A stretch of DNA of 55,354 nucleotides from Candidatus Eiseniibacteriota bacterium (GTDB lineage Bacteria; Eisenbacteria; RBG-16-71-46; JABDJR01; JAWXBZ01), in the NCBI GenBank assembly GCA_034440375.1, contig JAWXBZ010000045.1:1-55354 (forward strand), in the 5' to 3' direction. How positions within the stretch are numbered: position 1 is the first letter of the stretch; every line of letters begins with the position of its first letter. This document shows, piece after piece, positions 4,727-52,455 of this stretch. Under the pieces are notes generated by a model. The model worked only from the letters and a program-made list of their open reading frames with translations, did not search any database and was not told the DNA's origin. The translations under genes were made by a program, and so were the position numbers.

Positions 4727-5554
4727 CTAGGGTGTCATCAATCCCTTGATCCGCGACCAGGACGTCGGTTCGACGGCGATGATCCGATCGTGAGATGCCA
4801 GGCTCATGACGCGGCCCTGGGCGTCCAGGTTGACGGGGGCCAGGCCGCCGAGGCCGGTGAAATAGGTGTGGGAGGCGTTGCCGTTTACGTCGGCGTTGGT
4901 GAGTCCGATGCTGGCGCCGAACGCGGTCACCGTGAATCCGACTTCACTCTGATTCGCCGCGGGTGCCGTGACGACGATGGGCAGGAAGGCCAGCTGGCCG
5001 CCGCCCGGTGTCAGGCCGGCGCCGCCGTTGCCCTCGGCCATGCAGTAGATGCCGCCCCCCGCATTCAGGAAGGCAAGGATGTCGGCATTTCGGGAATTCA
5101 GGATGTTGAGTTCCGCCTGAGTCAGAATTCCGCCGAAATCCGAGGCCACCACGATGGCGCTGTACACCGTGCCTAAGTTGTTCAGACCGGCGTTCAGCGT
5201 GGCGGCGGTGGCGTGATCAAAATGAACGCCCTCCGTGTAGCCGCTGGCCACAATGCCGTTCTTGCCGACGGTGTGGCCGGCCGGCACCGCAATGCTTGAT
5301 TCGACGAAGAGGAACTTGGTGGCGCCGCCAAGATAGAACGGATTGAAGCCCGGATCCTGGATGAACGAGATGGCCACCTGGTTCAGACGGATAGCGCCGG
5401 CGGCATTGCCTCCGAGAGAGGCGTGAAAATCGGGATCATGCCCCGTCAGGAAAATGGAGCCGGCCAGGGCTGTCGAGCCCGTTACCAGGGTGGCGCCCAG
5501 CAGGATGCCGGCCGTCGCGAGTCCACGAAGTGTGCGTCGTGTCACTGATTTCAT
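4727..5554 (-). CDS. Secreted hypothetical protein with C-terminal VEPTSWSRIK tail
   Basis: GGAGG RBS; signal peptide MKSVTRR...TALA|GSIFLTGHDPDFHA; Gly/Ala-rich mature part; ends IIAVEPTSWSRIKGLMTP. Confidence 0.8.
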   Translation of the reverse strand: MKSVTRRTLRGLATAGILLGATLVTGSTALAGSIFLTGHDPDFHASLGGNAAGAIRLNQVAISFIQDPGFNPFYLGGATKFLFVESSIAVPAGHTVGKNGIVASGYTEGVHFDHATAATLNAGLNNLGTVYSAIVVASDFGGILTQAELNILNSRNADILAFLNAGGGIYCMAEGNGGAGLTPGGGQLAFLPIVVTAPAANQSEVGFTVTAFGASIGLTNADVNGNASHTYFTGLGGLAPVNLDAQGRVMSLASHDRIIAVEPTSWSRIKGLMTP

Positions 5555-5733
5555 GATTAGCCTCCAGTTGTTAAGCCTGATGAATGGCGGGGCACTCAAC
5601 CATACGTCATGTCGGCGGCCCCGCGCCACGCATTTTCATCATGACGTTGCCTGGTAGTTCCCGCCATGATATCTTCATGTGCTACCAAAAGTTATCCGTA
5701 GTCCCTCAAGTAATTTCACCGGCCTGACGGGAT

Positions 5734-8346
5734 GTGCTAAACGTGAAACAGATCCTCATTGATGACATCCTGCCGGCCGTTCAGAAGCCGTCGCGTTATC
5801 TTGGCAACGAACTGAACGCTGTCCACAAGGACCTGGCGCAGGTCAATGTCCGGATTGCCCTGGCCTTCCCGGACCTGTACGACCTTGGTCTCTCAAACAT
5901 CGGCCTCATGATCCTGTATCGCGTGCTGAACGACGTGCCGGATGTCTGGTGCGAGAGGGTCTACGCCCCCGCCGTGGACATGGAGGCCGAGATTCGCGCC
6001 CGGGGACTTCCGCTCTTCACGCTCGAGTCGACGACGCCGCTCCGAGACTTCGATTGCGTCGGTTTCACGCTGCAGTATGAGCTTTGCTACACGAACATCG
6101 TCAACATGCTGGACATGGCCGGCATCCCGTTCTTTTCCTCCCTGCGGAGTGACCGGGACCCGATCATCGTGGCCGGCGGTCCGGTTGCCTTCAATCCGGA
6201 ACCGATCAGTGATTTGATCGACGTGATCATCCTGGGTGATGGCGAAGAGGCCGTGCTGGCGCTGGCCAGGGCGTTGAAGACCGGCCGTGGCCGCCCCCGC
6301 CAGGAGCGACTTGACCTGATCCAGGTTGAGGTGCCGGGTGCCTACATCCCGGCCCGGTTCCCGACGGTCACGCTTCCATCGGGTGACATCGTCCGCGATC
6401 CAGCCGTCGCGCCAATCAAGAAGGCGATGATCCCGGATCTCAACAAGGTGCCGTTTCCGACCGACTACATTGTGCCCTACGTTCAGCAGGTCCACGACCG
6501 GATCAGCCTGGAGGTTCTGCGCGGGTGCACTCAGGGGTGCCGTTTTTGCCAGGCCGGCATGATCTATCGGCCGGTCCGTGAGCGAAGTCTCGAGAACATC
6601 GCCGCCCTGACGGAGGAGGCGATCAGGAAATCGGGCTACGAGGAAATCTCGCTGTCATCCCTGTCGACATGCGATTACAGCCGGGTCAAGGCACTGGTCG
6701 AACAGCAGGTTCGCCTGACCGGGCCGAAGAATGTGTCGGTGGGCCTGCCGTCACTCCGGCTGGACTCGTTCAGCGTTGACCTGGCCGAGATGACCAGTGG
6801 TGTCAAGAAGACCGGCCTGACCTTCGCGCCGGAAGCCGCTTCCGATCGTCTGCGGGCGGTCATCGACAAGTGGATTCCCGACGAGGAACTGATCAACACC
6901 ACGCGCGAGGTTTTCAGTCGCGGCTGGGAGTCGGTCAAGCTGTACTTCATGATCGGCCTTCCGACCGAAACGATGGATGATGTCGAAGCCATTGCCACGC
7001 TGTCGGAGCGGGTATTGAAGGCCGGCCGGCAGGTGAACAAGCGAGCCCGTATCCATACGTCGGTATCCACCTTCGTGCCGAAGCCTCATACGCCGTTCCA
7101 GTGGGAGCGGCAGGTGACCATGGCCGAGGTCAAGGAAAAGCACGATCTGCTGAAAAAGAAACTGTATCCGATCCGGCAGATCAAGGTCAGCCTGCACGAT
7201 TCGCCCACGTCCTGGTTGGAGGGGATACTGACGCGCGGCGATCGCCGGCTTGGGCGAACCATCGTGGAGGCCTGGCGGCGCGGCGCCCGCTTCGACGGCT
7301 GGACGGAGCATTTCAAGCCCGAGGCCTGGTCCGAAGCCTTCCTGGCCACGGGAATCGATCCGGATCGGGTCAATCGTCGTCGCACGCTCGAGGAGCCGCT
7401 CCCGTGGGATCATATCGATTGCCTGGTCACCAAGGACTACCACAAGAAGGAGTGGCTCAAGGCCGTGGCCGCCGGTCTCACGACCGACTGTCGAACGGCC
7501 TGTCACCGCTGCGGGGTCATCGACGAGCACAAGCAGCTCTGCGTCAACCAGATTTACACGGCTCGCGCCGGGAAAAAAGAAGAGGCCGGCTGGACAATGC
7601 CTCCGATGGCGGAGCTGACACCACCCAACCCGGATTCCGTCATGCGCCTTCGATTTCGATTCACCAAGACCGGGGAGATCCGCTTCCTGTCGCATCTCGA
7701 ACTGCAGAGCGCCATGACCCGCGCGTTCCGCCGGGCGGAGATACCGGTCGCCCGGAGCCAGGGATTCAATCCCCACGTCAAACTGAGTTTCGCCACGGCA
7801 CTGCCGGTCGGCCTCATCTCCCATGGCGAGTACGCGGAGATCGATCTCATCAACCCGATGACCGCGGATGAATTTCTGGCGCGGATGGAAAGGGTGTTGC
7901 CCACCGGCCTCGAATTCCTGTGGGCCAGCGAGATCCGGATCGGCAGTCCTTCGATGGGCAAGCTCATCGTGGCCAGCGGCTACGAAGCCGATCTCGAGCG
8001 CGCCCGCATCGAGAACGGATCGGGACCAATCGAATCGATGGTGACGGCTTTCCTGGCCAGCGAGAGCGTGAAGGTCGAGCGTCGCATGAAGGACGGGATG
8101 AGGATCCACGATGTCCGACCGGCCGTTCTCTCACTTCATTTCTACCCCGAGGGGCCAGGCGAGGGACTCCTGCGGTTCGTCCTGCGGGAGGGGAACGAAT
8201 CGGCCCGGGCCAAGGACGTCGTGCGGGGACTGTTGCACCTGGATGAAACAGCCGCCAACCGGCTCCAGGTGCGGAAACTCGACTCCTTCATTCTTGTTGA
8301 CGAGGAGTTCCGCTCGGCCAGCCTGGCTCCCGCCCACAAAGTTTGA
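5734..8346 (+). CDS. TIGR03960-type B12-binding radical SAM protein fused to a TIGR03936-type (DUF2344) radical-SAM-linked domain
   Basis: KPSRYLGNELN, AFPDLYDLGLSN, RGCTQGCRFC (CxxxCxxC) and FVPKPHTPFQW. The C-terminal domain has KTGEIRFLSHLE...SQGFNPH..LSFATALPVG. Start is GTG 5734 or 5743. Confidence 0.88.
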   Translation: MLNVKQILIDDILPAVQKPSRYLGNELNAVHKDLAQVNVRIALAFPDLYDLGLSNIGLMILYRVLNDVPDVWCERVYAPAVDMEAEIRARGLPLFTLESTTPLRDFDCVGFTLQYELCYTNIVNMLDMAGIPFFSSLRSDRDPIIVAGGPVAFNPEPISDLIDVIILGDGEEAVLALARALKTGRGRPRQERLDLIQVEVPGAYIPARFPTVTLPSGDIVRDPAVAPIKKAMIPDLNKVPFPTDYIVPYVQQVHDRISLEVLRGCTQGCRFCQAGMIYRPVRERSLENIAALTEEAIRKSGYEEISLSSLSTCDYSRVKALVEQQVRLTGPKNVSVGLPSLRLDSFSVDLAEMTSGVKKTGLTFAPEAASDRLRAVIDKWIPDEELINTTREVFSRGWESVKLYFMIGLPTETMDDVEAIATLSERVLKAGRQVNKRARIHTSVSTFVPKPHTPFQWERQVTMAEVKEKHDLLKKKLYPIRQIKVSLHDSPTSWLEGILTRGDRRLGRTIVEAWRRGARFDGWTEHFKPEAWSEAFLATGIDPDRVNRRRTLEEPLPWDHIDCLVTKDYHKKEWLKAVAAGLTTDCRTACHRCGVIDEHKQLCVNQIYTARAGKKEEAGWTMPPMAELTPPNPDSVMRLRFRFTKTGEIRFLSHLELQSAMTRAFRRAEIPVARSQGFNPHVKLSFATALPVGLISHGEYAEIDLINPMTADEFLARMERVLPTGLEFLWASEIRIGSPSMGKLIVASGYEADLERARIENGSGPIESMVTAFLASESVKVERRMKDGMRIHDVRPAVLSLHFYPEGPGEGLLRFVLREGNESARAKDVVRGLLHLDETAANRLQVRKLDSFILVDEEFRSASLAPAHKV

Positions 8347-8470
8347 GGGGTCGCAAACCGGGAGGCTCGCGCTACAATCAGGAGGCGCCATTCCGGGGAG
8401 TGATGGCGGGCCGATCCCAGGGCGACCCGGCCGACGGGACGGCATCCAGCCACGGCATCGAGAGGGCCCC

Positions 8471-8998
8471 ATGATACGCCCATCTGAAATCCTTCCGATC
8501 CTCGTTCCTGTCGCCCTTGGCCTCCTTCTGCTTTGCCGCCCAAGTCCGGCGGCCGCCGTTCTCAACTGCACCGCAAATCCGGAACTGCTCTGCGCGGACC
8601 TGCCCCGCCCGGGCATCATCGGCGATTCCGGATCGAATGGCAGCGCGGTTTATTGCGGGGCCTTCGGCGGCTACGTGGGCAAGGAGGATGTCTACACCTT
8701 TTCGCTGGTGTCGCAGACCGAAATCCAACTGCTCCTCACGATGACCGGCGGGCAGGATGCCGATGTCTTCATCGTGGCTGACTGTGATCCGGCCATCTGT
8801 TTTGCGGCGTCGTTCAACACGGGCACCACGCCCGACGCCATCTTCACCTGTCTTGGTCCGGGGGTCTATCGCGTCGTGGTTGATGCCCGGACGACGGTCA
8901 ACGTCCCGTACGAGATCCGCCTGTCCAGCTGCAACAACTGCCTGCCGGTGCCCGCGCTTCCATCGTCCTGGAGTCGGGTCAAGGCGCGGAGGGAGTAG
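8471..8998 (+). CDS. Secreted Cys-rich PPC-like (pre-peptidase C-terminal) domain protein with C-terminal PSSWSRVK tail
   Basis: Signal peptide ...SPAAA|VLNC; EDVYTF...DADVFI...LGPGVYRVVVD fits a PPC-like pattern; ends VPALPSSWSRVKARRE. Confidence 0.75.
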   Translation: MIRPSEILPILVPVALGLLLLCRPSPAAAVLNCTANPELLCADLPRPGIIGDSGSNGSAVYCGAFGGYVGKEDVYTFSLVSQTEIQLLLTMTGGQDADVFIVADCDPAICFAASFNTGTTPDAIFTCLGPGVYRVVVDARTTVNVPYEIRLSSCNNCLPVPALPSSWSRVKARRE

Positions 8999-19575: not shown

Positions 19576-20493
19576 CTAGTTCAGGGTGAATCGAATCGGC
19601 ATCGCAACCCATACTGCCACCGGCCGCCCATTCCAGAGAGCCGGCTTGAATCGCGCCGTCGTCGCGGCCGCCACGGCCGCATCGTCCAGCCCCGGGATTG
19701 ATCGCACCAGCCGTGATTTTCGCACCCCGCCATCCCGTGTTACCAGGACGAGCAGTTCGACCACTCCCTCGAGCTCACTCTGGCGTGCCATTTCCGGGTA
19801 CAGAGGCTCCGTCATCCAGACAAGCTCCGGAAGCTGGTCGACGGTGATGAACTCTCCCGGGTCGGGTTCATCGAGCGGGTTTTGTCCGAAGTAGAGGCCC
19901 ACTCTCGAGCCAACCGGTCCACCCCGGTCCTCGCCGTCGCCCTCGGTGCCGAAGGGATCACCGAAAGGGCTGCCGAATTGGTTGGCGTAGGCAGCGAGCA
20001 CCATCTCGGACGAGTCCATCAACGCCAGATGCTGATCAACCGGCGAAGGAACGGCGTTTCTTGGGTCCGGCAGGAGGAGGGGGGCTGGCCTGGCCTTGGG
20101 GGCTGCGGTGACCACCGGCGTTGGATCCCTCAACGGGAATTCGCACTCGATGATGATCGGACTCAGCTCGAGGTTTTTCGGGTGGTCCTGTGCCAGAAGC
20201 ACCACGCCAAGCAACGCCAGGCCCAGGTGGATCGCACCGGCGGAGCCAACGCCACGCATCATGGCGCCCGGGTAGGATTCGATCAACTGACGGGAGCCGT
20301 AGGCACCGGATGCCGGTTCGAGCCGATCCGGAATCGCCGCCCAGCCCTGGGTGACTGGCGTGAGACGAGTCCAGGCGCGCCAGCAGCCAATGGCAAGCGC
20401 CGTGACTGTGAGTGCCGCCATGATGAATACCAGCCGCTCAAGGGATTGGATTCCGGCGCTGAGTGCCAGGCGAGCCCAGATGAAGTCGGACAT
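19576..20493 (-). CDS. tonB: TonB-family energy transducer (paralog 2)
   Basis: TM segment with His (SAGAIH); C-terminal PLYPEMARQSELEGVV...LDDAAV..FKPA..GRPV..IRFTL. Confidence 0.85.
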   Translation of the reverse strand: MSDFIWARLALSAGIQSLERLVFIMAALTVTALAIGCWRAWTRLTPVTQGWAAIPDRLEPASGAYGSRQLIESYPGAMMRGVGSAGAIHLGLALLGVVLLAQDHPKNLELSPIIIECEFPLRDPTPVVTAAPKARPAPLLLPDPRNAVPSPVDQHLALMDSSEMVLAAYANQFGSPFGDPFGTEGDGEDRGGPVGSRVGLYFGQNPLDEPDPGEFITVDQLPELVWMTEPLYPEMARQSELEGVVELLVLVTRDGGVRKSRLVRSIPGLDDAAVAAATTARFKPALWNGRPVAVWVAMPIRFTLN

Positions 20494-20650
20494 ACGGCCA
20501 CCTCCGGTGTGGCGCCCGGTCGGCGAATCGGGTGATCGGCCGGTCCGGGTGCGTCGCTATCCGAGAGGGGGAGATATCCGATGAGGGGTGGCCCTGCTGA
20601 AACAGTATCGAGAACCTTCCCGGATCCGGCAAGGTCGGATCCCGAACATT

Positions 20651-21583
20651 CTAACTTTCGCGGAGACTGAAGCGGATCGGAATGGACACCCAGACGGCCA
20701 CGGGCTTCTTCTGCCAGAGTGCCGGCTTGAAGGAAGCCGCTTGAGCCGCCGCCTTGGCGGAGTCATCCAGCATCTGGATCGACTGTTCGACCCTGATGTT
20801 CTTGACCTTGCCATCCTTGCCGACAAGGACCAGAAGCTTGACCACCCCCTCCACCTGGGCCTCACGGGCCAGCTGTGGGTATTCCGGTTCGGGAATCGTG
20901 ATCAATTCGGGGAGCTGCTCGACCGGCTGGAAATCGCCCGGGGCCAGCTCGCCACCGTCACTCACCGCCACGTCGCCACCGCCGAATGTACCACCACCGC
21001 CGCCGCCCCAGATGCTTCCTTCGCCCTCACCACCTTCGAACATGGGGCCCAGATCGCCGAGCTCATCCTGCGAGAGAATGGTCGTATTCTTCGGCGCCGT
21101 GGCGTCCGGCACCGGAATCGGGATGGCTGCCGACGGGGGTGGCGGGGGCGGGGGACCGAGCACCGCCTGGTTGGGCGCCTGCTTCTGGCTGAGCGAGGGG
21201 GGTGCCCCCAGGTCGGCGTAGTTGACGACGCGCGCCTGCTGTGCCACGGGTTCACGGGTCAGAAAATTGGCGATGAGCACGCCGCCGCCGATCAGCACCG
21301 CATGGAAGAGAATCGCCCCGGTCACGCCCCGCGTCATGAAGCCCTGGTAGGCACTCTTGAGTACGGGCGCACCGTAGGGAGCCACATCTCCGGTCGGCAG
21401 GTCCTCGGGAATCGGAACCCAGGTCATGTCACCATCGCCGCCGATCTGACTTGGAGTGGCCAGCCGGGTGAAGTAGGACATGATGGTGGCGATGCTGAAG
21501 AGGCCGACCACCGACCAGGCAACCACCGTCAGGATGTCGAGCTGGGCCAGCATCATGAACTTGGCCCACACAAAGCTGCTCAT
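20651..21583 (-). CDS. tonB: TonB-family energy transducer (paralog 1)
   Basis: YGAPVLKSAY before the TM segment (AILFH); poly-Pro linker; PEYPQLAREAQVEGVV...FKPA..IRFSL. Confidence 0.88.
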   Translation of the reverse strand: MSSFVWAKFMMLAQLDILTVVAWSVVGLFSIATIMSYFTRLATPSQIGGDGDMTWVPIPEDLPTGDVAPYGAPVLKSAYQGFMTRGVTGAILFHAVLIGGGVLIANFLTREPVAQQARVVNYADLGAPPSLSQKQAPNQAVLGPPPPPPPSAAIPIPVPDATAPKNTTILSQDELGDLGPMFEGGEGEGSIWGGGGGGTFGGGDVAVSDGGELAPGDFQPVEQLPELITIPEPEYPQLAREAQVEGVVKLLVLVGKDGKVKNIRVEQSIQMLDDSAKAAAQAASFKPALWQKKPVAVWVSIPIRFSLRES

Positions 21584-22089
21584 AGCGGCACCGCCTTCCG
21601 GTCCGTGTCATCCAGAGGCACGAGGCTGAATTTATCGATCTCGGCCAGCCCCAGCTCGTCGGTGATTCGCACCATCGTGTTGTAGGTCGCCAGCCGGTCA
21701 ATCTTGATGAGGACGATCAGCTCGTCTTCCGGGAGGAGATTCTTCTCCCGCTCGAGGGTGGCGGGAATCTGGGCGAACTGGATTTCCGCAGGCGCCGTGG
21801 CCCCGCGATGCCAGAAAACACGCGCATCATCGCCGACCGGTCCCGGAAAGATGCGCAGGGTCATGATCTTGGATTCGGCTATCTGTGTCGGCGGCGTGTT
21901 GTCCGGCGGGAGCGACAGCTCCATGGCCTGGGGCGTGCGAAACACCGTGGTCACCATGTAGAAGATCAGGAGGAGGAAGGCGACATCGACCATCGGGGTC
22001 ATGTCGATTCGGACGGCGACTCTCTTGGCCTTTTTCCTGCCGCCCTTCTTGGTGGTTCTTCGCTCGCCGCCACCGACGTCAGCGCCCAT
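21580..22089 (-). CDS. exbD: ExbD/TolR biopolymer transport protein
   Basis: IDMTPMVDVAFLLLIFYMVTT motif. Confidence 0.92.
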   Translation of the reverse strand: MGADVGGGERRTTKKGGRKKAKRVAVRIDMTPMVDVAFLLLIFYMVTTVFRTPQAMELSLPPDNTPPTQIAESKIMTLRIFPGPVGDDARVFWHRGATAPAEIQFAQIPATLEREKNLLPEDELIVLIKIDRLATYNTMVRITDELGLAEIDKFSLVPLDDTDRKAVPL

Positions 22090-22103
22090 GGATCCTCACC
22101 CCC

Positions 22104-22562
22104 TCAGTGCGATCCGCCACCGCGACTGGTCTTGGCCATGTCGGTGACGAGGTTGAAGTTGGTAGCCTTGACTTCCTGGAGCTGCTTCATGATGTCCTCG
22201 ATCGTGCCGTAAGGGGCGTCCTTGTCCCCCTTCAGTGCGATGCGGAACCCCGGGTTCTTGATGCGCCACCCCTTGACGCTGGCGCCGAGTTCCATGACCG
22301 GCACGGCCTCGGTGAAGCCTTCACCGGGAGAGACGTAAACCGCCCCGGCCTTGTCGACATAAATGGTGAGAAGATCGCTCTCCGGAATCTTGAGATTGGC
22401 GTGCGATTCCGGCAGCGTTACCGTCACCGTTTCCGGCGGTTTGAACGTCGTCGTCGACATGTAGAAGATGAGCAGGAGAAAGGCCACGTCGACCATGGCG
22501 GTCATGTCGAGCTTGACCCCAAGGCGGCCCTTCTTGATCCTAGACATGCGGATCCTCGGCAT
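22104..22562 (-). CDS. exbD: ExbD/TolR biopolymer transport protein
   Basis: LDMTAMVDVAFLLLIFYMSTT and LKGDKDAPYG motifs. Start is 22562 or 22547. Confidence 0.92.
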   Translation of the reverse strand: MPRIRMSRIKKGRLGVKLDMTAMVDVAFLLLIFYMSTTTFKPPETVTVTLPESHANLKIPESDLLTIYVDKAGAVYVSPGEGFTEAVPVMELGASVKGWRIKNPGFRIALKGDKDAPYGTIEDIMKQLQEVKATNFNLVTDMAKTSRGGGSH

Positions 22563-23262
22563 GCTCTTCGAGGAGCTGGAGCATTTCGTAGGTGGCTTCG
22601 TCCATCAGGTAGTTGAACGAGTCGACCCGGTTGACGAAGTAGTTGTAGGCCACGATGCCGCAGATGCCGACGAAGATCCCGCCGGCGGTGTTGATCAGCG
22701 CTTCGGAGATACCCATCGCCAGCTGGGCGGGGTCGGGCGCACCCTCGTGACCGGAGGCCGAGAAGGCGCGGATCATGCCGATGACGGTTCCAAGGAGGCC
22801 GACCATCGTCCCGATCGAAGCGATGGTCGAGAGCGAAATCAGGTTGCGCTCGAGCAGCGGCACTTCGAGGGCGTTGGCCTCCTCGATGGCGCGCTTGGTT
22901 TCGATGAGACGCTTCTCCGCGTTCATCTTCCCGGCCACCAGGCTGTAGCGCTCGAGGCCGGCCCGGATGACGTTGGCCAGCGATCCCTGCTGGTGATCGC
23001 ACAGGGCGATGGCCCGCTCCAAGTTCTTCTCGAGGAGGAGCTGGCGGAGCTGCTGGATGAAGGTGATCATCGAGCCGCGCCCCTGGGCCCGCTTCAGGCT
23101 GACGAATCGTTCGATGATGAACGAGACCACCAGGATCGAGAGCGTTATCAGGGCGATGACCAGTGGCCCCCCGGCGCGCACGAACTCCGGCAGCAGAAAG
23201 AAATAGATCAGGATGGAACTGCCGATCGCCATTGAGTAGATGACGAGATAAAACTGCTTCAT
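22540..23262 (-). CDS. exbB: MotA/TolQ/ExbB proton channel protein
   Basis: STIASIGTMVGLLGTVIGMIRAF and LAMGISEALINTAGG motifs. Confidence 0.93.
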   Translation of the reverse strand: MKQFYLVIYSMAIGSSILIYFFLLPEFVRAGGPLVIALITLSILVVSFIIERFVSLKRAQGRGSMITFIQQLRQLLLEKNLERAIALCDHQQGSLANVIRAGLERYSLVAGKMNAEKRLIETKRAIEEANALEVPLLERNLISLSTIASIGTMVGLLGTVIGMIRAFSASGHEGAPDPAQLAMGISEALINTAGGIFVGICGIVAYNYFVNRVDSFNYLMDEATYEMLQLLEEHAEDPHV

Positions 23263-23302
23263 GGTCGCCTTGTCCTCCCGGTAAGCCCGCCGCCCGGCGG
23301 GA

Positions 23303-23653: not shown

Positions 23654-23676
23654 CGATCCTCCTCCGAAATCGGGCC

Positions 23677-42394: not shown

Positions 42395-45300
42395 ATGCTC
42401 CAGAGCCGGAGGCGTCCCCGACAGTTTCCGTTCGGGATTCTGAGGCCAGTTGCCCGAACCCTGTTTTTTTCGGCCCTTATGGCAGCCATTTCGATTGGCG
42501 TGGCCGGCGCAGGTGTCCACCAGGTTGAGGTTCGTTTTGATCCGGCCGCCATCACGCGCGGCGTACGAATGGGAGTTGACGGGGCCGCCTGGCTGCTTCC
42601 CGGGTGCAGCGTCTGGAATGAGGCCGGTGCGCCGGCCGTTCCGTTTCGTCCGGTTCTCCTCGCCGTTCCGGCGGGAGAAAGGGTCGTGTCGGTGACCACC
42701 CGTGCCTCCGGAGCCTCCGTTGAGCTGGACCTGGGCGAGCCGGGTATTGGAAGCACCGACGGAAGGCGTGCCCCAACCGCCTGGGACGGGGCAACCCCGT
42801 ATCCGGCCCGGCTCCACCGATCGAGTGATGCGGGCTGGATGCGCGGACAGCAAATCCAGCCCCTGACCATCTGGCCGCTGGATTGGGATCCGGGCCGCGG
42901 CCTGGCCACCCTCACCACGTCCATCTTGATCGAGATGGTGACCGAGGCGGCCCCACCACCCGCGGATACCTTTCTGCCGCTCCGACCTTCAGCACGGGTC
43001 GACGGTCATTTCGGGGCGCTGTTGTCGTCGTGTGTCCTTAATCCCGAACTGCTCGCGGACGAATCCCGGCGGCGTGATGTCATTCGCCCCCTCGATTCCG
43101 CCGCGACACCCTTCAGCCCGCGGTTCCGCCCCTCCGTGGACGGCAGCCCGGTCGAAATGGTGATCATCACCTCGGAGGCGCTGGAGCCTTACTTCACGCC
43201 TTTGGCCGTGTGGAAGACCGAACGGGGGATCCCCACGGTGGTACGCAGCACCGAATGGATCCGGGCCAACTACCCCAACGCTGTCGATCTGGCATCGACG
43301 ATCCGCCGGTTCATCGCTGACGCCGCTTCCCGCTGGGGGACCGAGTACGTCCTCCTGGCCGGCGGATCCGAGATCATTCCGGTGCGCTACGGCAAGAGCC
43401 TTTACTTCGGTGGCGAGGACATTCCGGCGGACATGTATTACCAGTGCCTGGACGGCACCTGGAATTCCGACGGGGACGCCTTCTTCGGTGAGGGCTACAA
43501 CAGTTCGTTGATCACCGGCGACGGTTGCGACCTTTTCCCCGAAGTGTGGCTGGGGCGCGCGGCCGTTTCGGATTCAACAACCGCGCAGACCTTCGTCAGC
43601 AAGAATCTGACCTACGAACGGGACCCGGCCCCGGGTTACCTGACCCGCGCCATGATGATGGCCGAGGTTCTCTTCCCCCAGCACTATTCGACCGGTGATT
43701 CCATCGTCTACGACGGCGCTTATGTTGCGGAGCAGGCGCTCTCCCGATTTCCCCCCTCGTTCACACTGTCGCGTTACTACGAGAATTTCCCACCGTATGC
43801 CCCTCTCGGCGCGTTGCCCGAGACCAAAACGGCTGTCGTTGACGCAGTCAATTCGGGTTACGGCATCATCCAGCATGTCGGTCACGGCTACATCAATACG
43901 ATGGCCGTCGGCATCGACGGACTGACGCTCGGCAATCCCGATGTGGCCGCGTTTTCGAACGGACCCCGGTATTCGCTTCTGTACTCCATCAACTGCACTT
44001 CGGCGGCGTTCGACTTCAACTGCATCGGCGAGGAGTGGTTGGAGAACGCGACGGGCGGTGCCGTGGCCAATGTCGGATCAACCCGGTTCGATTTTCCGGG
44101 CACCGGCACCGAGTACCAGAACGAGTTCTACCGCGTGCTGTTCGGGGCGCCGGTGCCGAGCCTTGGTGAAGCCTTCGCCGGCTCGAAAATCCCGTTCATC
44201 GCGGAATCGACCTCCGATTCGGAGCACCGCTGGACACAGTTTGCCCAGGTACTCCTCGGAGACCCGTCGCTTCGCATCTGGCGGTACGAGCCGGTGGCGG
44301 CGGCGGTATCGCACCCGTCGTCCATCGAACTCGGTGCCGGCGTCGTCGTCGTCACGGTGATGCGGGGTGGATCACCGGTCGATTCGGCGGTGGTTTGCCT
44401 GTTCAAGAATTCGGACGACTACGTGGTTGCCCTCACCGACGGCGCCGGGCAGGCAACACTTGATTTCCATCCGGATCGGCCGGGCCAGTCCCGGCTGACC
44501 GTGACGCATCCGACACTTCGCCCGTGGCAATCCGATATCGCCGTCCTTGCGCCGGCATTGCCACACCTCTTCGCCTCACTGGCGGTCGTCGACGACGCGA
44601 CGGCCCCGGCAGACGGAAACGGTGACACGATTTTTGACCTCGAGGAAACGGTCCGTTTCGAACTGGTACTGACCAACCAGGGGACCGCCCCGGCCACTCT
44701 GGTGACCGCCACCCTTGTCTCGGCCGATCCAAATCTTCAGATCATCGACGGCACCGCCAGCTGGCCCAGCCTCGGCGTCGGGGCCTCGGCCCCGCCGATC
44801 GATCCGTTCGTCATCCGGGCGGTGGGCACCGCGACCGATCGCTATGAGACCACCGCCACATTGATCATTGCGGCGGCCGGTTATTCTCGTTCCGAGCCGG
44901 TAATCATCCTGGTCGGCGCCCCCCTTCTCGAACGATATCGACTTCTGCGGAGCGACGTTGGCTTGGGAAATGGAAACGGGCTGATTGAGGTCGGCGAAAA
45001 CCAGACCCTGACCCTGACGCTGCGCAACAACGGGCGGGGCGCGGTCCGAAATGTCACTGCCAGGCTCCGCCCGCTCGGTCCCGAAACCACGATCAGTGAC
45101 TCGATGGCCAGCTTCGGCACCATCGGTGCCGACCAGGTGGCCATTGGCGACCCGTTCGTTTTTCAATGGAGCACTATCAACCCCTCGCGCAAGATGCGAT
45201 TGGTGGTCGAGAGTCTCGGCAAGACATTGATGAGCTTTGACGTCGACGTGTACCCCCCGGGCACGCCGGTGCTGCCGGCCGCCGGCGGGAAGGCCTCATC

Positions 45301-47173
45301 CATCGCATTGACCTGGCAGCCGAATATCGAACTGGACAATCGCGGCTACGTCGTCTATCGGGGAACAGCCGCCGGCGGTCCGTTCGCCCGTGTCAACATG
45401 TATGCTGACAATCGAATCGCCTACTACAATGACGAAAACCTGGCGCCCCTGACGCGATTCTATTATCGGGTGGCCTCGATCGATCAGTCCGGGAATGAAA
45501 GCCCCCAGTCGATCGTGGCAGCCGCCACGACCACGCTGTCCAGCTCGGCCGGCTACCCGCTGTTGCTTGGCGGATCGACATCGTCCTCCCCGACATTCTC
45601 ATACTTTGACGGGGACACGATTCCTGAAATTGTCTGCGGCGCGGAGGAACTGTACGTCATCAGCGGGCTCGGAATCGAGTTCGTCGACGGTGACAACGAC
45701 GGTCGGACGTATGGCGTCTACTCCAGCTCGGGTTACGCCACGTTCTGGTCGCCGCCGTCGTCGACCGACATCGACCTGGATGGCGTCATCGACGTCTGCG
45801 CGGCCGGGTGGAGCAACGGACTTCTTTATCTTTACGATGGCCATCTCGGTACCAAGCCGGGATTTCCGGTGAACATTGACGTCAGTGGCACCGGCAACCC
45901 CGGCACCTGGAGCGCCCCGGTCATGGTTGACGTCGATGGTGACGACGTGATGGAAATCTTCATCAACTCGGGAGCCCACACGTACGCATTTCACGCTGAC
46001 GGCTCGGAACTGGTCGATGGGGATGCGAACCCGGCCACCCAGGGGGTTTTCGCCGCCCTCGGTGCGCCGTCCAACTACTCGACACCGCGTATCGTCGACC
46101 TCGACAACAATGGGGTCATGGAAGTGATCATCGCCAGCCGCGACAGGAAGCTGTACGTGAAGCATCTCAATGGCACCAACTATCCGGGCTTCCCGATCAC
46201 GTACACCGGGGACATCACGTCAACGCCGGCCATCGGTGACCTGAACAACGACGGATTGAAGGAGATCGTCTTTGGTTGCAGCGACAACAAGCTGTATGCC
46301 TTCAACATCAACAAGGTGGCCCCGCCCGGGTGGCCGAAGGGGGTCAATTTCAACCAGGACCTCGATTCGAGTCCGGCACTGGCTGACATGAACGGGGATG
46401 GGTTCCTCGATGTGGCCATCTGCGCTGGAAACGGAACGGTGGGGATCTTCAAGGGGCAGGATGGCGGGATCTTTCCCGGTTTTCCTGTCATACTGACGAA
46501 TGGCGCGGGTCAGTCCATACAGATACGGTCAAGTCCGTCCATCGGCAACGTCGATACCTCGCCGGACCTGGAAATGGTCTTCGGCGGGCAGGACGGCAAC
46601 GTCTATGCCCTGAAGACAAACGGCACGATGGCCATCGGATTTCCGATCAAGACCGATAACGTCGTGGAAGGGGGGGCGGTTCTCTGGGATGTCGATGGGG
46701 ATGGCCTTACCGAAGTATGCGTTCAAAGTTTCGACCAGCGGTTGTATGTCTGGGACACGCCGGCGCCCTTCACCGCCCAATCATGTCCATGGCCGATGTT
46801 CGGCCACGACAGCCGTCGAACCGGCGTGGTCGGCAACCCCATCTTCATTGTGACGGGGACTCCCGATTCGCCGCCGGCACCGCCTCTTCCATTGACCCTG
46901 GCCCAGAATTCACCGAATCCATTTCAGCCGGCGACAACGATCCGATTCCGCGTGGCGCCGGACTCAAACGTCCGGTCGGCGCAGCTGGCAGTTTTTGATC
47001 CATCGGGGCGGCTGGTGCGCCGATTGTTTGAGGGCGAGGTGGCAGCGGGGGAATTCGAGTTTCGCTGGGATGGTCTGGATGACGCCGGGTGTGCCGTGGG
47101 GTCCGGAGTTTATTTCTACCGGATTGAAGCGAACGGGCAGTCGATCACTCGAAAGATGGTGCTCGCGCGGTAA
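42395..47173 (+). CDS. C25 (gingipain-family) cysteine peptidase with propeptide, Ig/FnIII-like modules, FG-GAP/VCBS-like repeats and FlgD-Ig CTD
   Basis: GAGGAGG RBS; WKTERG, YVLLAG, PADMYY, WLGR, His in IQHVGHG, Cys in SINCTS, LLGDP; DxDxDG repeats; terminal QNSPNPF...WDGLDD..GSGVYFYRI..KMVLAR. Confidence 0.9.
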   Translation: MLQSRRRPRQFPFGILRPVARTLFFSALMAAISIGVAGAGVHQVEVRFDPAAITRGVRMGVDGAAWLLPGCSVWNEAGAPAVPFRPVLLAVPAGERVVSVTTRASGASVELDLGEPGIGSTDGRRAPTAWDGATPYPARLHRSSDAGWMRGQQIQPLTIWPLDWDPGRGLATLTTSILIEMVTEAAPPPADTFLPLRPSARVDGHFGALLSSCVLNPELLADESRRRDVIRPLDSAATPFSPRFRPSVDGSPVEMVIITSEALEPYFTPLAVWKTERGIPTVVRSTEWIRANYPNAVDLASTIRRFIADAASRWGTEYVLLAGGSEIIPVRYGKSLYFGGEDIPADMYYQCLDGTWNSDGDAFFGEGYNSSLITGDGCDLFPEVWLGRAAVSDSTTAQTFVSKNLTYERDPAPGYLTRAMMMAEVLFPQHYSTGDSIVYDGAYVAEQALSRFPPSFTLSRYYENFPPYAPLGALPETKTAVVDAVNSGYGIIQHVGHGYINTMAVGIDGLTLGNPDVAAFSNGPRYSLLYSINCTSAAFDFNCIGEEWLENATGGAVANVGSTRFDFPGTGTEYQNEFYRVLFGAPVPSLGEAFAGSKIPFIAESTSDSEHRWTQFAQVLLGDPSLRIWRYEPVAAAVSHPSSIELGAGVVVVTVMRGGSPVDSAVVCLFKNSDDYVVALTDGAGQATLDFHPDRPGQSRLTVTHPTLRPWQSDIAVLAPALPHLFASLAVVDDATAPADGNGDTIFDLEETVRFELVLTNQGTAPATLVTATLVSADPNLQIIDGTASWPSLGVGASAPPIDPFVIRAVGTATDRYETTATLIIAAAGYSRSEPVIILVGAPLLERYRLLRSDVGLGNGNGLIEVGENQTLTLTLRNNGRGAVRNVTARLRPLGPETTISDSMASFGTIGADQVAIGDPFVFQWSTINPSRKMRLVVESLGKTLMSFDVDVYPPGTPVLPAAGGKASSIALTWQPNIELDNRGYVVYRGTAAGGPFARVNMYADNRIAYYNDENLAPLTRFYYRVASIDQSGNESPQSIVAAATTTLSSSAGYPLLLGGSTSSSPTFSYFDGDTIPEIVCGAEELYVISGLGIEFVDGDNDGRTYGVYSSSGYATFWSPPSSTDIDLDGVIDVCAAGWSNGLLYLYDGHLGTKPGFPVNIDVSGTGNPGTWSAPVMVDVDGDDVMEIFINSGAHTYAFHADGSELVDGDANPATQGVFAALGAPSNYSTPRIVDLDNNGVMEVIIASRDRKLYVKHLNGTNYPGFPITYTGDITSTPAIGDLNNDGLKEIVFGCSDNKLYAFNINKVAPPGWPKGVNFNQDLDSSPALADMNGDGFLDVAICAGNGTVGIFKGQDGGIFPGFPVILTNGAGQSIQIRSSPSIGNVDTSPDLEMVFGGQDGNVYALKTNGTMAIGFPIKTDNVVEGGAVLWDVDGDGLTEVCVQSFDQRLYVWDTPAPFTAQSCPWPMFGHDSRRTGVVGNPIFIVTGTPDSPPAPPLPLTLAQNSPNPFQPATTIRFRVAPDSNVRSAQLAVFDPSGRLVRRLFEGEVAAGEFEFRWDGLDDAGCAVGSGVYFYRIEANGQSITRKMVLAR

Positions 47174-47430: not shown

Positions 47431-50400
47431 ATGCTCGATTCTCCCTGTCCCCCCGGGCGCAAGCCCGTCCTCATTCAATTGATCGCGCTCACCATTGGCC
47501 TCCTGACGTCACTGGCGTCCTTCGCGAACCCGGGCCCGCTTCGGCTCGATCGCCGATTGTCGCCCGACGATGTCACCATCGACAGCCGCGCCAACGTCCC
47601 CGTCATCCGAATGAAGGGGGAGACGTTTCGTGCCCTGGCCGGAGGCACATGGCCGGAGGCGCTGACCTGGTTCGCCCTGCCGCCGGGACAGGTGGCTGAA
47701 AAGGTGACCGTGACGGCCGACGACCCGGTCGACATCGAGGAGGTTACCGCGCTGGACCTGGCCCCTTTGCTCGAGGGACTGCCGCGTGTCGGGGCACCGC
47801 TTTCGATTCGACGCGCGGAGGGGAACTCGCGCGGTGTGCGATTGCTCGGTCTTGGCGTCTCGCCGTTGGCCTGGGATGCCGCTCGCGGGCGGCTCGTCTT
47901 GTACCAGCGGCTCGAATTTACCGTTGATCTGGCCCCCGAGCCGGCGCCGGCCGCCGCCTTGACGCCCGGACGCCCGGGTAGCCCCGGCGACAACCGATTT
48001 CGCGACGCCCTGCGCGGCCTGGTGGCCAACCCCGGCCTGATCGTGGACGGAATCCCGCCCGCCGCCGAACAACTACGGGGCGATTTCGCGCCAAGTTCAT
48101 TCGTGGACGACGCCTGGGAAGGGCCTTTCCGACCGTCACTCGACGGCCGGCCCGTGGACATGGTCATCATCACCGGTGAGGCGCTTGAATCGGAGTATCA
48201 GCGACTGGCCGAATGGCGGACCCGAAGCGGCATCTACACCGTGATCCGCACCGTCGAGTGGATTGCCGCCGAATACCCGGAAGGCGTTGATCTGGCCGAT
48301 CGCATTCGTCGATTCATCAGGGACGCCGTGTCGGGCTGGGGGGTGGAGTGGGTTCTCCTCGGCGGCGATGCCGATGTCGTGCCGGTACGCTACGGGCGGA
48401 ACCAGTACTTCGGCGGCGAGGACATTCCCGCCGACATCTACTACCAGTGTCTTGATCGCACCTGGAACGAGAATGGGAACGATGATTTCGGCGAGGGGGC
48501 ACCTCCCGGCGACGGGACCCTGCCGGCCGACAACGCCGACCTGATCCCCGATGTCTGGCTGGCCCGGATTCCCTGCTCCTCGGCCGAGGGCACCCGCTTG
48601 ATGATCGACAAGACCTTCCAGTACGAGCGGACGCCGATCCTTGCCCCCGGATACCTGGACCGGTTCGTGTCCATGGCCGAGGTACTCCAGCCGTCGAACT
48701 GGAATTTTCCAGATACGGTGGTCTTCGACGGCGCGCTCCTGTCCGAGGAACTCATTGCGGGGCTATCGCCGTTCTACCAGATCGACCGTTTCTACGAGAA
48801 CTGGCGGGCCTATCAACAAGTGGGGGCCATGCCCGAGACCCGGGATGCGGTCCTGGCCGCGATGAGCGCCGGCGCCGCCATCGTGAATCATGACGGCCAT
48901 GGCTTTCACAACAATCTCTCGGTCGGCATCGGCGGACTGGAAGTTGTCCGTACCGACGTCGATGCCCTGGCAAATGTCGGCAGGCCGTTCCTCTTCTTCG
49001 GCATCAACTGCAATTCGGCGGCCATCGACTTCGATTGCATCGCCGAGCACTTTCTCTGCCAGCCGAACGGGGCCTTCGCCTACATGGGGTCGACGCGTTT
49101 CGACTTTCCCGGAACTGGCGATCTTTATCAGTCGGAGTTCATCGAGAACCTGATGGATGGTGTACCACTGGGGAAGGCCCATGCGCTGGCCAAGCTGGCC
49201 GAGGTGCCGCTGGCCCAGTTCGACGGGCCGGAGCGCTGGCATCAGTTCTCCCTGCTCTGCCTGGCCGATCCGGCCGTACCGATCTATTCCGACCTGCCGC
49301 GATCGCTGTCCGTGATGCACGCGTCATCACTGACGCTGGGTCAGCCGGTGCCGGTCACAGTGACCCGCCTCGGGGCACCCCTGGCCGGCGCCCGCGTCAC
49401 GCTGTACCGCGCGGGTGAGGTATTTATCACGGCGACCACCGACGTCAACGGGCAGGTCACGCTGGAATGCGCCGCTGAAACCCCGGGCCCGCTATCGCTG
49501 GTGGTGACCGCGCGGAATTCGTTACCCTATGAGGCAACTCCGATGCTTGGGCTGCCGGCTGCCGCCGCATGGCCCGTCATTCGATCCATTCGGGTGGATG
49601 ACATGGCCTCCGGCAACGGCAACGGACGGCTCGAGGCGGGCGAGACGGCCGATCTCTTGATCACCGTTCGCAACGACGGCAGCGCTCCGGCGGCGAACCT
49701 GGGATTATCGATTGGAACTACAACCGCGGCAGTAAGCTTTCCGAGCGCGACCGGTCTCCTCGGCACGCTGGCCGCCGGCGCCTCGGACTCGACCTGGGAT
49801 GGCGCCCCGATACGGGTTGCTGTCGAAGCGGGCGTACCCGGATGGCTGGATGTCGAATCGCTTGTCACCCTGTCGTGGACCGGTGGTTCACGCGTCATAC
49901 CGGTGGGGTTGCGCGTTGGCGGCGCCGTCCTGGCCGTTCGCTCGCAGAGCTATGTGGACGATCCAGGCGGTCCGGCTTCCGACGGTGTAGTCCTGGCCAA
50001 CGAACTGATTCACCTGACGCCGGTGATTGTCAATCAGGGCGGCGCCCGAACCGGGAGCGTCATTGTAAGACTGGAAAGCGTTGATCCGCGGGTCACCCTG
50101 GAAACCGCCCAGGTCGTCGTGGGTCCGCTGGAGGCCGGACAGGCGCTGGCACTGCCCGTGCCGCTGGCGTTTCGGGTCAGTGACCTTCAGGCCTTGCCGA
50201 CCATCGACCTGGTGCTGTCGATCGGGTCACCCGAATACGGCCGGCGGGCCGTTGATCTGAAACCTCCGGGAGTTCCACCGATTCCCTTCGGGCTGTCGCG
50301 GCCCTCCTCGATCCTGTTGACCTGGTTTCCGGTTCTTGACCCGGACATCCGGGGTTACGCCATCTACCGTTCCGCCAGCGAAAGCGGGCCTTTCGATCTC

Positions 50401-52455
50401 CTGAATCCGGATGTCGACAATGCCATGGGTTACTACGAGGACATCAACCTGCCGCCGTTCAGTCGGTGGTTTTACCGGGTGGCCTCGATGGATCGCTCCG
50501 GGAACCAGTCCGGCACGAGCGCCACGGTCAACTTTGCCACGAGCTATCCCACGCTGGGAAACTGGCCGATTCGTCGAGAGGGGGCCACGCCCTCCTCGCC
50601 GGTTGTCCATGACTTTGACGGCGACGGTATTCTGGAAATCATCATCGGCGGTGAGGAAATCTATGTCGTGCGAGCCGACGGCACCGAATACCGGAACGGC
50701 GACGATGACAGCCGTACGCTCGGGATCCTGACGCGGACAAACAAGGCCAACTTCTGGTCGACTCCCGCGGTGGCCGATGTGGATGGGGATGGAATCCTCG
50801 ACATCGTGGCCGCCGGCTTCAACGACGGCAAACTGTACGTTTTCGGGAGTGACGGGTCAACGCGCGCGGGATGGCCGAGAGCGCTCGGAAACCCCCTCGG
50901 CCAGTCCGATGCCGCCGTGGCGTGGGGTTCCCCCCTGATCGTTGATCTGACCAACGATGGGTCGCGTGAGATCATTATCCCCGGAAATCGGTACCTGTTT
51001 GCCTTCCACGCCGACGGCACAGAAGTGTCCGACGGCGATTCCAACCCGGCCACCTACGGCCCCTGGCTCGATCTGGGAGGCGCATTCAATTACGGGACCG
51101 CCGCCGCGGCCGATTTCGACCAGGACGGCCGGCCGGAAATTGCGGTCGGCAGTCGCAGCGGACAGTTTTTTCTGATCGACGACACCGGCATCGTCATGCC
51201 GGGCTTTCCAAAGGTCTACCCCGGTGCGCAGATCACCGGTTCGCCGGCGATCGCCGACCTCGACAAGGACGGCGAACTGGAGGCGATCTTCCCGCTGCGA
51301 AACACCGCGGAAATTCACGCTGTCAACCGGTTCGGTGCATCGCCTCCGGGCTGGCCTGTCCGGATCGCCGTCAACCAGGACCTGGATGCCTCACCGACGG
51401 TGGCCGACCTGGACGGCGACACGTTTCCGGACGTGGTCATGGTCGGTGGCTCCGGCCGTGTGTCGATCTGGAAAGGGCAGAACGGCGTCATCTTCCCGGG
51501 TTTCCCGGTCAACCTGGCGCTTCTCGAGCAGGCCCAGTCCTTCGCGGTGCGCGGCACACCCTGCCTCGGCGACGTGACGGGTGACGGGGTACCGGACATC
51601 CTGATCGGCACACAGACCGCCAGTGTTTACGGGTTGTCGACAAGCGGGCAGGTTCTGCCGGGCTTTCCGCTCCGGGCCGAGGACAACATCGAAGGGGGAC
51701 CGCTCCTCTGGGATATCGATGGCGATGGCAATACCAACATCGTCTTCGGATCGATCGACCGGAAGATTTATGCGTACGACACCCCCGGCCTGTTCAATCC
51801 AATCAGCTGCCCCTGGCCCATGTTCCGCCACGACCAGATGAACACCGGCTTTGTCGGCAAACCATTGTCGGTGCCGGCCGAGCCGGCTCTCAGTAACTTG
51901 ACCGCCCTGGCCACGCTGGAGGGAATTCGACTCGAGTGGTCCCTTTCGGGGGATGGCTGGACCGGGTGGGTCGTGGAGCGTTTCCCCGCAGCACTACCGG
52001 AGGCCGCCGAACGCCTGACCGTGGAGGCGTTGCCGCACCGGACGGGCACAATGACCTACCTCGACGGGACGGCGCGGCCTGGTGATCGGTACGCCTACCG
52101 GCTTAGCGTGATCGACCGCCTGGGACATGTCCGGACTTTCCCCGAACTGCTCGCCTCGATCCCGGCAGGAGCACCCAGGGCCCTGGCCGGATCCGCGGCA
52201 CCCAATCCCTTCGGTGCCGGTACAACGCTCTCCTACGCCATTGCCGAAGGGCCGACGAAGGTGACCCTGGATGTCTTTGATCCTCTCGGGCGACGGATTC
52301 GACGGGTCGAGTCGATTGATCGGGCACCCGGCACGTACAGCACTGTCTGGGATGGCCGTGACGACTCGGGTGCGGAGGTCCTTCCCGGAGTCTATTATTG
52401 GCGGCTGACCGCCGGGCCCGATCAGGTCCGCGGCAAGCTGACCCGTATCCGTTGA
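47431..52455 (+). CDS. Second C25 peptidase / FG-GAP / FlgD-Ig protein (paralog)
   Basis: GGAGG RBS; WVLLGGD, PADIYY, His in NHDGHG, Cys in GINCNS; DxDGDG repeats; APNPF..WDGRDDSG..PGVYYWRL. An alternative start lies at 47407. Confidence 0.9.
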   Translation: MLDSPCPPGRKPVLIQLIALTIGLLTSLASFANPGPLRLDRRLSPDDVTIDSRANVPVIRMKGETFRALAGGTWPEALTWFALPPGQVAEKVTVTADDPVDIEEVTALDLAPLLEGLPRVGAPLSIRRAEGNSRGVRLLGLGVSPLAWDAARGRLVLYQRLEFTVDLAPEPAPAAALTPGRPGSPGDNRFRDALRGLVANPGLIVDGIPPAAEQLRGDFAPSSFVDDAWEGPFRPSLDGRPVDMVIITGEALESEYQRLAEWRTRSGIYTVIRTVEWIAAEYPEGVDLADRIRRFIRDAVSGWGVEWVLLGGDADVVPVRYGRNQYFGGEDIPADIYYQCLDRTWNENGNDDFGEGAPPGDGTLPADNADLIPDVWLARIPCSSAEGTRLMIDKTFQYERTPILAPGYLDRFVSMAEVLQPSNWNFPDTVVFDGALLSEELIAGLSPFYQIDRFYENWRAYQQVGAMPETRDAVLAAMSAGAAIVNHDGHGFHNNLSVGIGGLEVVRTDVDALANVGRPFLFFGINCNSAAIDFDCIAEHFLCQPNGAFAYMGSTRFDFPGTGDLYQSEFIENLMDGVPLGKAHALAKLAEVPLAQFDGPERWHQFSLLCLADPAVPIYSDLPRSLSVMHASSLTLGQPVPVTVTRLGAPLAGARVTLYRAGEVFITATTDVNGQVTLECAAETPGPLSLVVTARNSLPYEATPMLGLPAAAAWPVIRSIRVDDMASGNGNGRLEAGETADLLITVRNDGSAPAANLGLSIGTTTAAVSFPSATGLLGTLAAGASDSTWDGAPIRVAVEAGVPGWLDVESLVTLSWTGGSRVIPVGLRVGGAVLAVRSQSYVDDPGGPASDGVVLANELIHLTPVIVNQGGARTGSVIVRLESVDPRVTLETAQVVVGPLEAGQALALPVPLAFRVSDLQALPTIDLVLSIGSPEYGRRAVDLKPPGVPPIPFGLSRPSSILLTWFPVLDPDIRGYAIYRSASESGPFDLLNPDVDNAMGYYEDINLPPFSRWFYRVASMDRSGNQSGTSATVNFATSYPTLGNWPIRREGATPSSPVVHDFDGDGILEIIIGGEEIYVVRADGTEYRNGDDDSRTLGILTRTNKANFWSTPAVADVDGDGILDIVAAGFNDGKLYVFGSDGSTRAGWPRALGNPLGQSDAAVAWGSPLIVDLTNDGSREIIIPGNRYLFAFHADGTEVSDGDSNPATYGPWLDLGGAFNYGTAAAADFDQDGRPEIAVGSRSGQFFLIDDTGIVMPGFPKVYPGAQITGSPAIADLDKDGELEAIFPLRNTAEIHAVNRFGASPPGWPVRIAVNQDLDASPTVADLDGDTFPDVVMVGGSGRVSIWKGQNGVIFPGFPVNLALLEQAQSFAVRGTPCLGDVTGDGVPDILIGTQTASVYGLSTSGQVLPGFPLRAEDNIEGGPLLWDIDGDGNTNIVFGSIDRKIYAYDTPGLFNPISCPWPMFRHDQMNTGFVGKPLSVPAEPALSNLTALATLEGIRLEWSLSGDGWTGWVVERFPAALPEAAERLTVEALPHRTGTMTYLDGTARPGDRYAYRLSVIDRLGHVRTFPELLASIPAGAPRALAGSAAPNPFGAGTTLSYAIAEGPTKVTLDVFDPLGRRIRRVESIDRAPGTYSTVWDGRDDSGAEVLPGVYYWRLTAGPDQVRGKLTRIR

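Follow-up and report, generated by a model that had tools for sequence, protein, structure and literature searches.

A portable C-terminal tail on secreted proteins of Candidatus Eiseniibacteriota and a candidate lipoprotein reader for it

The window analysed here is a stretch of 55,354 nucleotides from Candidatus Eiseniibacteriota, contig C45 of a genome of 3.96 Mb that is 94% complete (G000). Two of its open reading frames (ORFs), which we call ORF1 and ORF2, encode exported proteins that end in the same short C-terminal tail, and this tail is our subject. A sequence-only reading of the window had singled out both genes and proposed that their shared ending, P-[ST]-S-W-S-R-[IV]-K, is a sorting signal. 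Both ORFs were confirmed where that reading had placed them and with the ends it gave (Table 1), their Sec signal peptides are visible by inspection, and their mature domains do look unrelated, falling in separate BLAST clusters. The motif is present on both proteins as proposed, but the true element is longer, about 17 residues, and more general. The PPC-like match of ORF2 is weak (E 0.003, below the cut-off).

Table 1. Features of the window and of two related loci elsewhere in the genome.
Feature	Position	Strand	Description
ORF1	4727..5554	-	275-residue exported protein, ends ...IAVEPTSWSRIKGLMTP, stop
ORF1 domain GSIFLTGHDPDFH	within 4727..5554	-	no Pfam/NCBIfam family; homologs end in the tail or PEP-CTERM
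ORF1 predicted Sec signal peptide, residues 1-31	5462..5554	-	from sequence, by heuristic; conserved A31/G32 boundary
ORF1 tail IIAVEPTSWSRIKGLMTP and stop	4727..4783	-	Pro/Val linker and S-W-S-x-I-K helix; profile 37.2 bits
ORF2	8471..8998	+	175-residue Cys-rich exported protein, ends ...VPALPSSWSRVKARRE, stop; weak PPC-like domain
ORF2 predicted Sec signal peptide, residues 1-29	8471..8557	+	by inspection; homologs show AHA at the same place
ORF2 tail LPVPALPSSWSRVKARRE and stop	8942..8998	+	profile 32.1 bits
C25 peptidase and FG-GAP protein	42839..47173	+	FlgD-type C-terminal domain, non-carrier; alternative C-terminal signal of G000
Second C25 peptidase and FG-GAP protein	47431..52455	+	FlgD-type C-terminal domain, non-carrier; in tandem with 42839..47173
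Two-repeat lipoB lipoprotein	G000:C24:19644-20960		tail after each repeat
Candidate reader operon, outside the window	G000:C137:30037-33381		barrel, lipoA and lipoB
Outer-membrane barrel protein	G000:C137:31405-33381 (L018:11409-13382, -)		between rsmA and lipoA-lipoB

Genome-wide, the pattern [ST]W[SGA]x[IVL]K gives 75 six-frame matches, 65 of them at most 13 residues from a stop and 10 at least 30 residues away. At a threshold of at least 25 bits, an iterated profile finds 69 C-terminal versus 2 internal sites, a count that is partly circular because the profile was built on the pattern matches. The consensus is [PC]-V-P-V-E-P-T-T-W-[SG]-x-[IVL]-K-x-[LR]-[LFI], in which W is invariant, K occurs in 72/74 tails, T usually precedes W and G often stands in place of S. 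The Lys is followed by 3-13 residues, mostly 4-5, that form no transmembrane helix, and the position table has no conserved basic run, that is, no terminal Arg-rich cluster. The tail is thus not of the PEP-CTERM type, and the 54 carriers scanned have no FlgD or Por_Secre_tail match, which separates it from the C-terminal domain (CTD) of type IX secretion systems (T9SS). Two high-scoring tails (G000:C129:11053-12159 and C89:2146-2478) are followed by 33-46 extra residues, likely because the stop was lost or the ORF is a fragment with a frameshift.

Carriers are rich in signal peptides and diverse in sequence. The heuristic called a signal peptide in 35/39 carriers versus 430/1522 non-membrane controls, the other 33 of the 72 carriers being absent from the first gene calling and not counted. 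BLAST clustering divides seventy carriers into 52 groups, the biggest with 14 members, and the cargo domains found (choice-of-anchor D and E, ScyF-like NHL, DUF4394, LTD, PPC, beta-helix, DNRLRE) are characteristic of surface proteins. No Pfam or NCBIfam model covers the tail in the 54 carriers scanned, and no description of it was found in the literature searched, with supplements and subscription journals outside its scope. That the tail serves as a tag for sorting or docking, in one form or another, we consider very likely. A 14-member secreted family in tandem arrays (G000 C252, C11, C50) bears the tail; its domain also opens three large proteins with a FlgD-type CTD.

Comparison of homologs indicates that the tail is modular, C-terminal and mutually exclusive with PEP-CTERM segments and FlgD-type CTDs. 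Homologs of ORF1 number 926. Among the top 120, the tail closes 38 proteins and a PEP-like transmembrane segment closes 72, while 10 match neither type and 0 have both; the closest named homolog among the matches listed is labelled Ca. Eisenbacteria. For ORF2, all 5 homologs of near length carry the tail (5/5), so no swap is demonstrable. Paralogues of several carriers within G000 end in a FlgD-type CTD in place of the tail. There are 114 FlgD matches in this genome, 106 of them C-terminal, and no ORF has both signals; the median length is 225 residues for proteins with the tail versus 717 for those with the FlgD CTD. The genome also encodes T9SS parts, namely SprA, PorU-PorV and further PorV paralogues. 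The expectations of the sequence-only reading that the motif would be common, C-terminal, enriched on signal-peptide proteins, exchangeable for PEP-CTERM or FlgD-type endings and free of any curated family model were all borne out.

We considered the exosortase of G000 as a reader of the tail and rejected it, since the sole copy is paired with an adjoining IPTL-CTERM gene. This dedicated exosortase and its neighbour (G000:C112:33448-35130) are flanked by two kinase-like genes.

A different candidate came from one of the carriers, a lipoprotein on contig C24 with a weak DUF4440 match. It has two repeats with the motif after each, and its paralogues lie on contig C137, where the gene order is rsmA, an outer-membrane protein, two lipoproteins that we call lipoA and lipoB, polysaccharide deacetylase and secDF. 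lipoA and lipoB are homologous (HHalign 99.8%), and neither matches a family above cut-off. The AlphaFold2 model of lipoA has a predicted local distance difference test (pLDDT) score of 93, and 95-97 in the helix region, which is consistent with a C-terminal helix packing on the domain; the fold is NTF2-like (Foldseek TMq about 0.5). In 133/150 lipoA proteins (the best 150 of 1904 homologs) the C-terminus reads W.D-(about 8 residues)-[TS][WLF]G.[L][RK], about 8 residues past the last strand. The core of the tail profile scores at least 5 bits in 30/150 lipoA homologs versus 19/2872 background C-termini. At the level of sequence, then, the tail is closely similar to the helix that ends lipoA, and this helix appears to be its source. 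The question of whether the helix is integral to a fold thus has two answers: on the cargo it is modular, and in one fold, that of lipoA, it is integral. Housekeeping lipoB, in contrast to lipoA, stops at the last strand or ends in a Trp-less placeholder on a linker (SISELKSR in G000, where lipoB is in the region C137:30037-30561). Accessory tandem lipoB copies in tail-rich genomes have a canonical tail after a long linker, which suggests that the tailed paralogues form chains.

The outer-membrane protein of the operon was found by profile search as a single copy in 31/31 genomes of the class, and its model (pLDDT 87) shows a barrel with about 28 strands and no plug. It has no Pfam match, and PorP/SprF matches are weak, in 3/21 members. 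Fold searches returned only generic barrels (MtrB, Z 17.1, root-mean-square deviation 10.4, 493 residues aligned), which is not evidence of a new fold; neither the barrel nor lipoA or lipoB has sequence relatives in the PDB, and an ESM Atlas search gave unnamed clusters only. We regard the barrel itself as a candidate for a new translocon. An apparent co-loss of the barrel in the tail-poor family f9 was discarded: a single query had missed the protein, and the profile found it in 31/31.

In an alignment of 147 lipoA sequences, the strongest co-varying pairs are E78-R171 (z 11.2) and W73-R171 (z 9.1), followed by Y45-R171 (z 6.5). R171 is the position of K in TWGxxK, and Arg stands there in 62%. 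The full Tyr/Trp/acid triad is present in 104/113 lipoA sequences with a basic helix residue versus 0/34 without one, so the lipoA fold retains the triad only where a Lys or Arg side chain is there to be held. Helix-less lipoB retains the acid in 21/21 and the full triad in 15/21. In G000 itself, lipoA has lost both the triad and the basic residue, and lipoB keeps Y37, W62 and D67. Given that helix-less lipoB keeps the pocket, we infer from the sequences that it binds a Lys-bearing helix from outside, and that the cargo tail is such a helix.

The tail extends well beyond this genome, although taxon names here come from record titles and are to be used with care. Among the class relatives, with up to 150 candidates scored for each, profile matches number 19-109 in 27/30 and 1-8 in one family. 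A GTDB pattern scan found the tail under the labels Eisenbacteria, Krumholzibacteriia, Latescibacterota, Effluviviaceae, Zixibacteria, Ignavibacteriaceae and Poribacteria, so the taxa that the sequence-only reading had named (Eisenbacteria, Latescibacterota and Poribacteria) hold, and Krumholzibacteriia can be added. Records titled Fibrobacteraceae or Udaeobacter (L128, L158, L131) have 5-19 tails; these labels may be wrong. A tailed lamin-tail-domain protein (G000:C194:12463-13104; L378, L379, L092) is kept in the tail-poorest genomes, G016, G023 and G029, and is possibly a core client of the class. Among 45 genomes chosen by tail pattern, 40 have lipoA/B matches. The remaining 5 are one Poribacteria, one with lipoB by a later search, two chance matches, and G047.

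As an outgroup we used 61 genomes from the phylum of an Ignavibacteriaceae-labelled genome (G034), with the strict tail TWGSIKA[MLI]F[RKQ]. The distribution is nested: 49 genomes have SprA, 26 of these also have the lipoprotein family, and 16 of those 26 have a single strict tail; a seventeenth pattern match holds an in-frame stop and is not counted. None of the 23 genomes with SprA and no lipoprotein has a strict tail (0/23). Thirteen loci were read, and their client is a single conserved secreted protein, about 135 residues long, with an immunoglobulin (Ig)-like domain. It is single-copy, belongs to no Pfam family and ends RTWGSIKA[ML]FR (L364-L376, e.g. L364:3573-3980); its gene often adjoins a Maf-like gene, named by eye. 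In G000 the same Ig-like domain occurs only 95-100 residues before the stop of FlgD-CTD proteins (8/8). There it precedes the FlgD CTD, so the client's tail occupies the exact position of the CTD. The outgroup lipoB has W.DES[NE]F at its C-terminus and retains the W..E pocket.

Poribacteria, which at first gave no lipoA match, were taken as a counter-example until an iterated search recovered a distant lipoB-like family in 26/26 (HHalign 96% to lipoB). Tails are likewise present in 26/26, with 92 rows for the tail pattern versus 1 control row. As in the other tail-rich genomes, the housekeeping lipoB-like copy lacks the tail and accessory copies have it. In 5/5 Poribacteria tested there is a SprA-like ORF of about 2200 residues (pieces below the family cut-off) together with PorV. 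In one Poribacteria genome (G088:C1:1875496-1880757) a PorV match is about 3.5 kb away from two lipoB-like genes. Two lipoA/B loci of Latescibacterota type have a PorV-family gene close upstream, and at a Zixibacteria locus a SprA-like 3' end, recognized by eye, is about 4 kb off.

The reading that we favour, with a probability of roughly 0.55, is that the tail would be a portable C-terminal tag whose helix inserts into the vacant pocket of the NTF2-like lipoB, which would keep the cargo in place or route it at the outer membrane. Of the guesses made in the sequence-only reading, docking onto a carrier is the better supported. The cargo would first be exported through Sec, as suggested by the heuristic signal-peptide calls. 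In lipoA, the protein's own helix is predicted to pack on the NTF2-like domain, with Arg or Lys in the Tyr/Trp/acid pocket. The pocket of lipoB would probably capture the tail helix in trans, displacing a placeholder where one is present, in a form of donor-helix complementation; we lean towards this step by a modest amount. In the least certain step, lipoA and lipoB might hand the cargo to a T9SS-like translocon (SprA/PorV) or to the 28-strand barrel; alternatively, the cargo could be retained on lipoB. The Pro/Val linker, which looks like a CTD linker, could possibly be cut by a PorU-like C25 peptidase.

It is tempting to extend this to an envelope sorting system of uncultured phyla on the side of the Fibrobacterota-Chlorobiota-Bacteroidota (FCB) group together with Poribacteria, in which a 9-residue helix derived from lipoA would be the label and helix-less lipoB its reader by donor-helix complementation. 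The Eisenbacteria-type pair would have its own plug-less 28-strand barrel, translocating or displaying cargo either alongside the T9SS or upstream of it. We hold this wider version tentatively, at less than even odds.

Several observations weigh against lipoB as the reader. The co-variation rests on 147 sequences, with contacts taken from co-variation rather than from model coordinates, and the lipoB pocket could bind another Lys or Arg ligand. The outgroup genomes are kin, so p-values for co-occurrence overstate it, and 10/26 outgroup genomes with the lipoprotein have no strict tail match. G047, with 2 tails in 1.5 Mb, gave no lipoprotein match. Conversely, the tail-poor G016 and G023 (2 and 1 tails) keep the operon, with W62 of their lipoB replaced by F/L. 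In Poribacteria the protein is a distant one with F in place of W; its loci have no barrel neighbour, and its own short acidic terminal segment could cover the pocket. Nor does the barrel lie beside lipoA/B in the Ignavibacteriaceae- and Latescibacterota-labelled loci.

The rival that best withstands the data is that the tail is a minimal T9SS signal for small proteins, read directly by SprA, PorV or a PorV paralogue, with the likeness to lipoA reflecting origin only, or with lipoA and lipoB as mere substrates. The T9SS parts of G000, with their several PorV paralogues, would be at hand, tail and CTD interchange on the same domains, and SprA-like genes occur in all tail-bearing outgroup genomes and in 5/5 Poribacteria, there with PorV. 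The tail linker is also like CTD linkers, a likeness seen in 26/101 pre-CTD versus 19/202 control windows and in 20/69 tails. We nevertheless think direct reading unlikely. It does not account for the 23 SprA-positive, lipoprotein-negative genomes without any tail, or for G016 and G023, which retain 49 and 36 FlgD CTDs yet have almost no tails. The retention of the pocket in helix-less lipoB is left unexplained, and T9SS CTDs are folded beta-sandwich domains, unlike a 9-residue helix.

The lipoB pocket fits equally well with a permanent, non-covalent anchor of dockerin type, in which cargo is docked on lipoB and on tandem paralogues chained by their own tails, forming a periplasmic or surface scaffold with no role in translocation. 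The tail-ended accessory copies in tail-rich genomes and the two-repeat lipoB of G000 are what such chains would look like. This seems improbable to us given that housekeeping lipoB is single-copy versus up to about 100 carriers per genome, and that the positional swap with export and sorting signals suggests routing rather than binding alone.

Amphipathic membrane-targeting helices are known from MinD/FtsA and PBP5, and a tail with a face of W, I and L, a net charge of about +1.9 and no transmembrane segment might bind the membrane directly, with no protein reader. Its hydrophobic moment is 0.37 versus 0.34 for shuffles, however, and a K that hardly varies, together with a small residue following W, points to a specific site. 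Direct membrane binding would also leave the nested co-occurrence with the lipoproteins unexplained, and we give this account little credence. Similarly, we discount the tail Lys as a covalent attachment site (isopeptide to peptidoglycan or glycan, or acylation), despite its near invariance and nearly fixed distance to the end, because the homologous lipoA position is Arg in most sequences and incapable of such a link, and no enzyme co-occurrence was found, the sole exosortase having its own target and other intramembrane proteases not having been searched.

Elsewhere in the window, the two tandem C25 and FG-GAP proteins are gingipain-like, and the genome has 5 C25 proteins. A short ORF at 40454-40759 (-) has a C-terminal segment, FDLNSDGTVGLSDATLL, that we take to resemble dockerin/EF-hand; it has no Pfam match and is possibly a fragment with a third kind of C-terminal tag. 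At 19576-25230 (-) lies one cluster of a TPR protein, an anti-sigma-antagonist-like gene, ExbB/ExbD/ExbD-like genes and two TonB-like genes (TPR and TonB_C named by Pfam, the rest by eye).

Among known systems, the tail resembles T9SS CTDs (type A PF18962/TIGR04183; here FlgD_ig PF13860). Both combine a Sec signal with a C-terminal signal on many unrelated proteins, and the tail occurs in the same genome, on the same domains, in the same position, after the same Ig domain and with a similar linker. The tail is, however, a single helix of about 17 residues on small cargo, whereas CTDs are beta-sandwiches of 70-100 residues, and its candidate partner is an NTF2-like lipoprotein rather than a PorV/PorP barrel. 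CTD classes have dedicated shuttles, which are barrels (type B CTD with PorP/SprF; PMC12618676); a dedicated candidate partner for the tail parallels this shuttle logic.

Like PEP-CTERM, LPXTG, GlyGly-CTERM, MYXO-CTERM and IPTL-CTERM, the tail is short, portable and present in many copies per genome, and it shares with PEP-CTERM the swap directly after the ORF1 domain and the choice-of-anchor cargo. It differs in having neither a transmembrane helix nor a terminal Arg cluster; tripartite signals are defined by three parts, and these are two of them (bioRxiv 10.1101/2023.06.07.544157).

A short terminal element that completes or docks in a partner's groove is presumably what the tail has in common with donor-strand complementation (chaperone-usher, type V pili) and with cohesin-dockerin pairs. 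Here the donor would be a helix with a buried Lys, common to dozens of unrelated cargos, and the acceptor NTF2-like. lipoA has the cone-shaped alpha+beta fold of the NTF2/SnoaL-like superfamily (DUF4440, SnoaL), as does lipoB by homology, but their pocket appears to hold a peptide Lys or Arg, not a small molecule. What is new is thus a tail covered by no curated model and, as a candidate drawn from sequence comparison, a reader of a new type, lipoB.

As proposed, the pair would comprise a 17-mer peptide and a soluble domain of 170 residues. A one-client version is present in the Ignavibacteriaceae-labelled genomes, a family that includes cultured members. If the reading is correct, it would provide an address and its reader for about 2% of proteins in several uncultured phyla, and a sorting principle based on neither a transmembrane anchor nor a folded CTD. 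It would also show a sorting signal arising from the terminal helix of one lipoprotein paralogue, and its minimal peptide/receptor pair could be used as a display tag.

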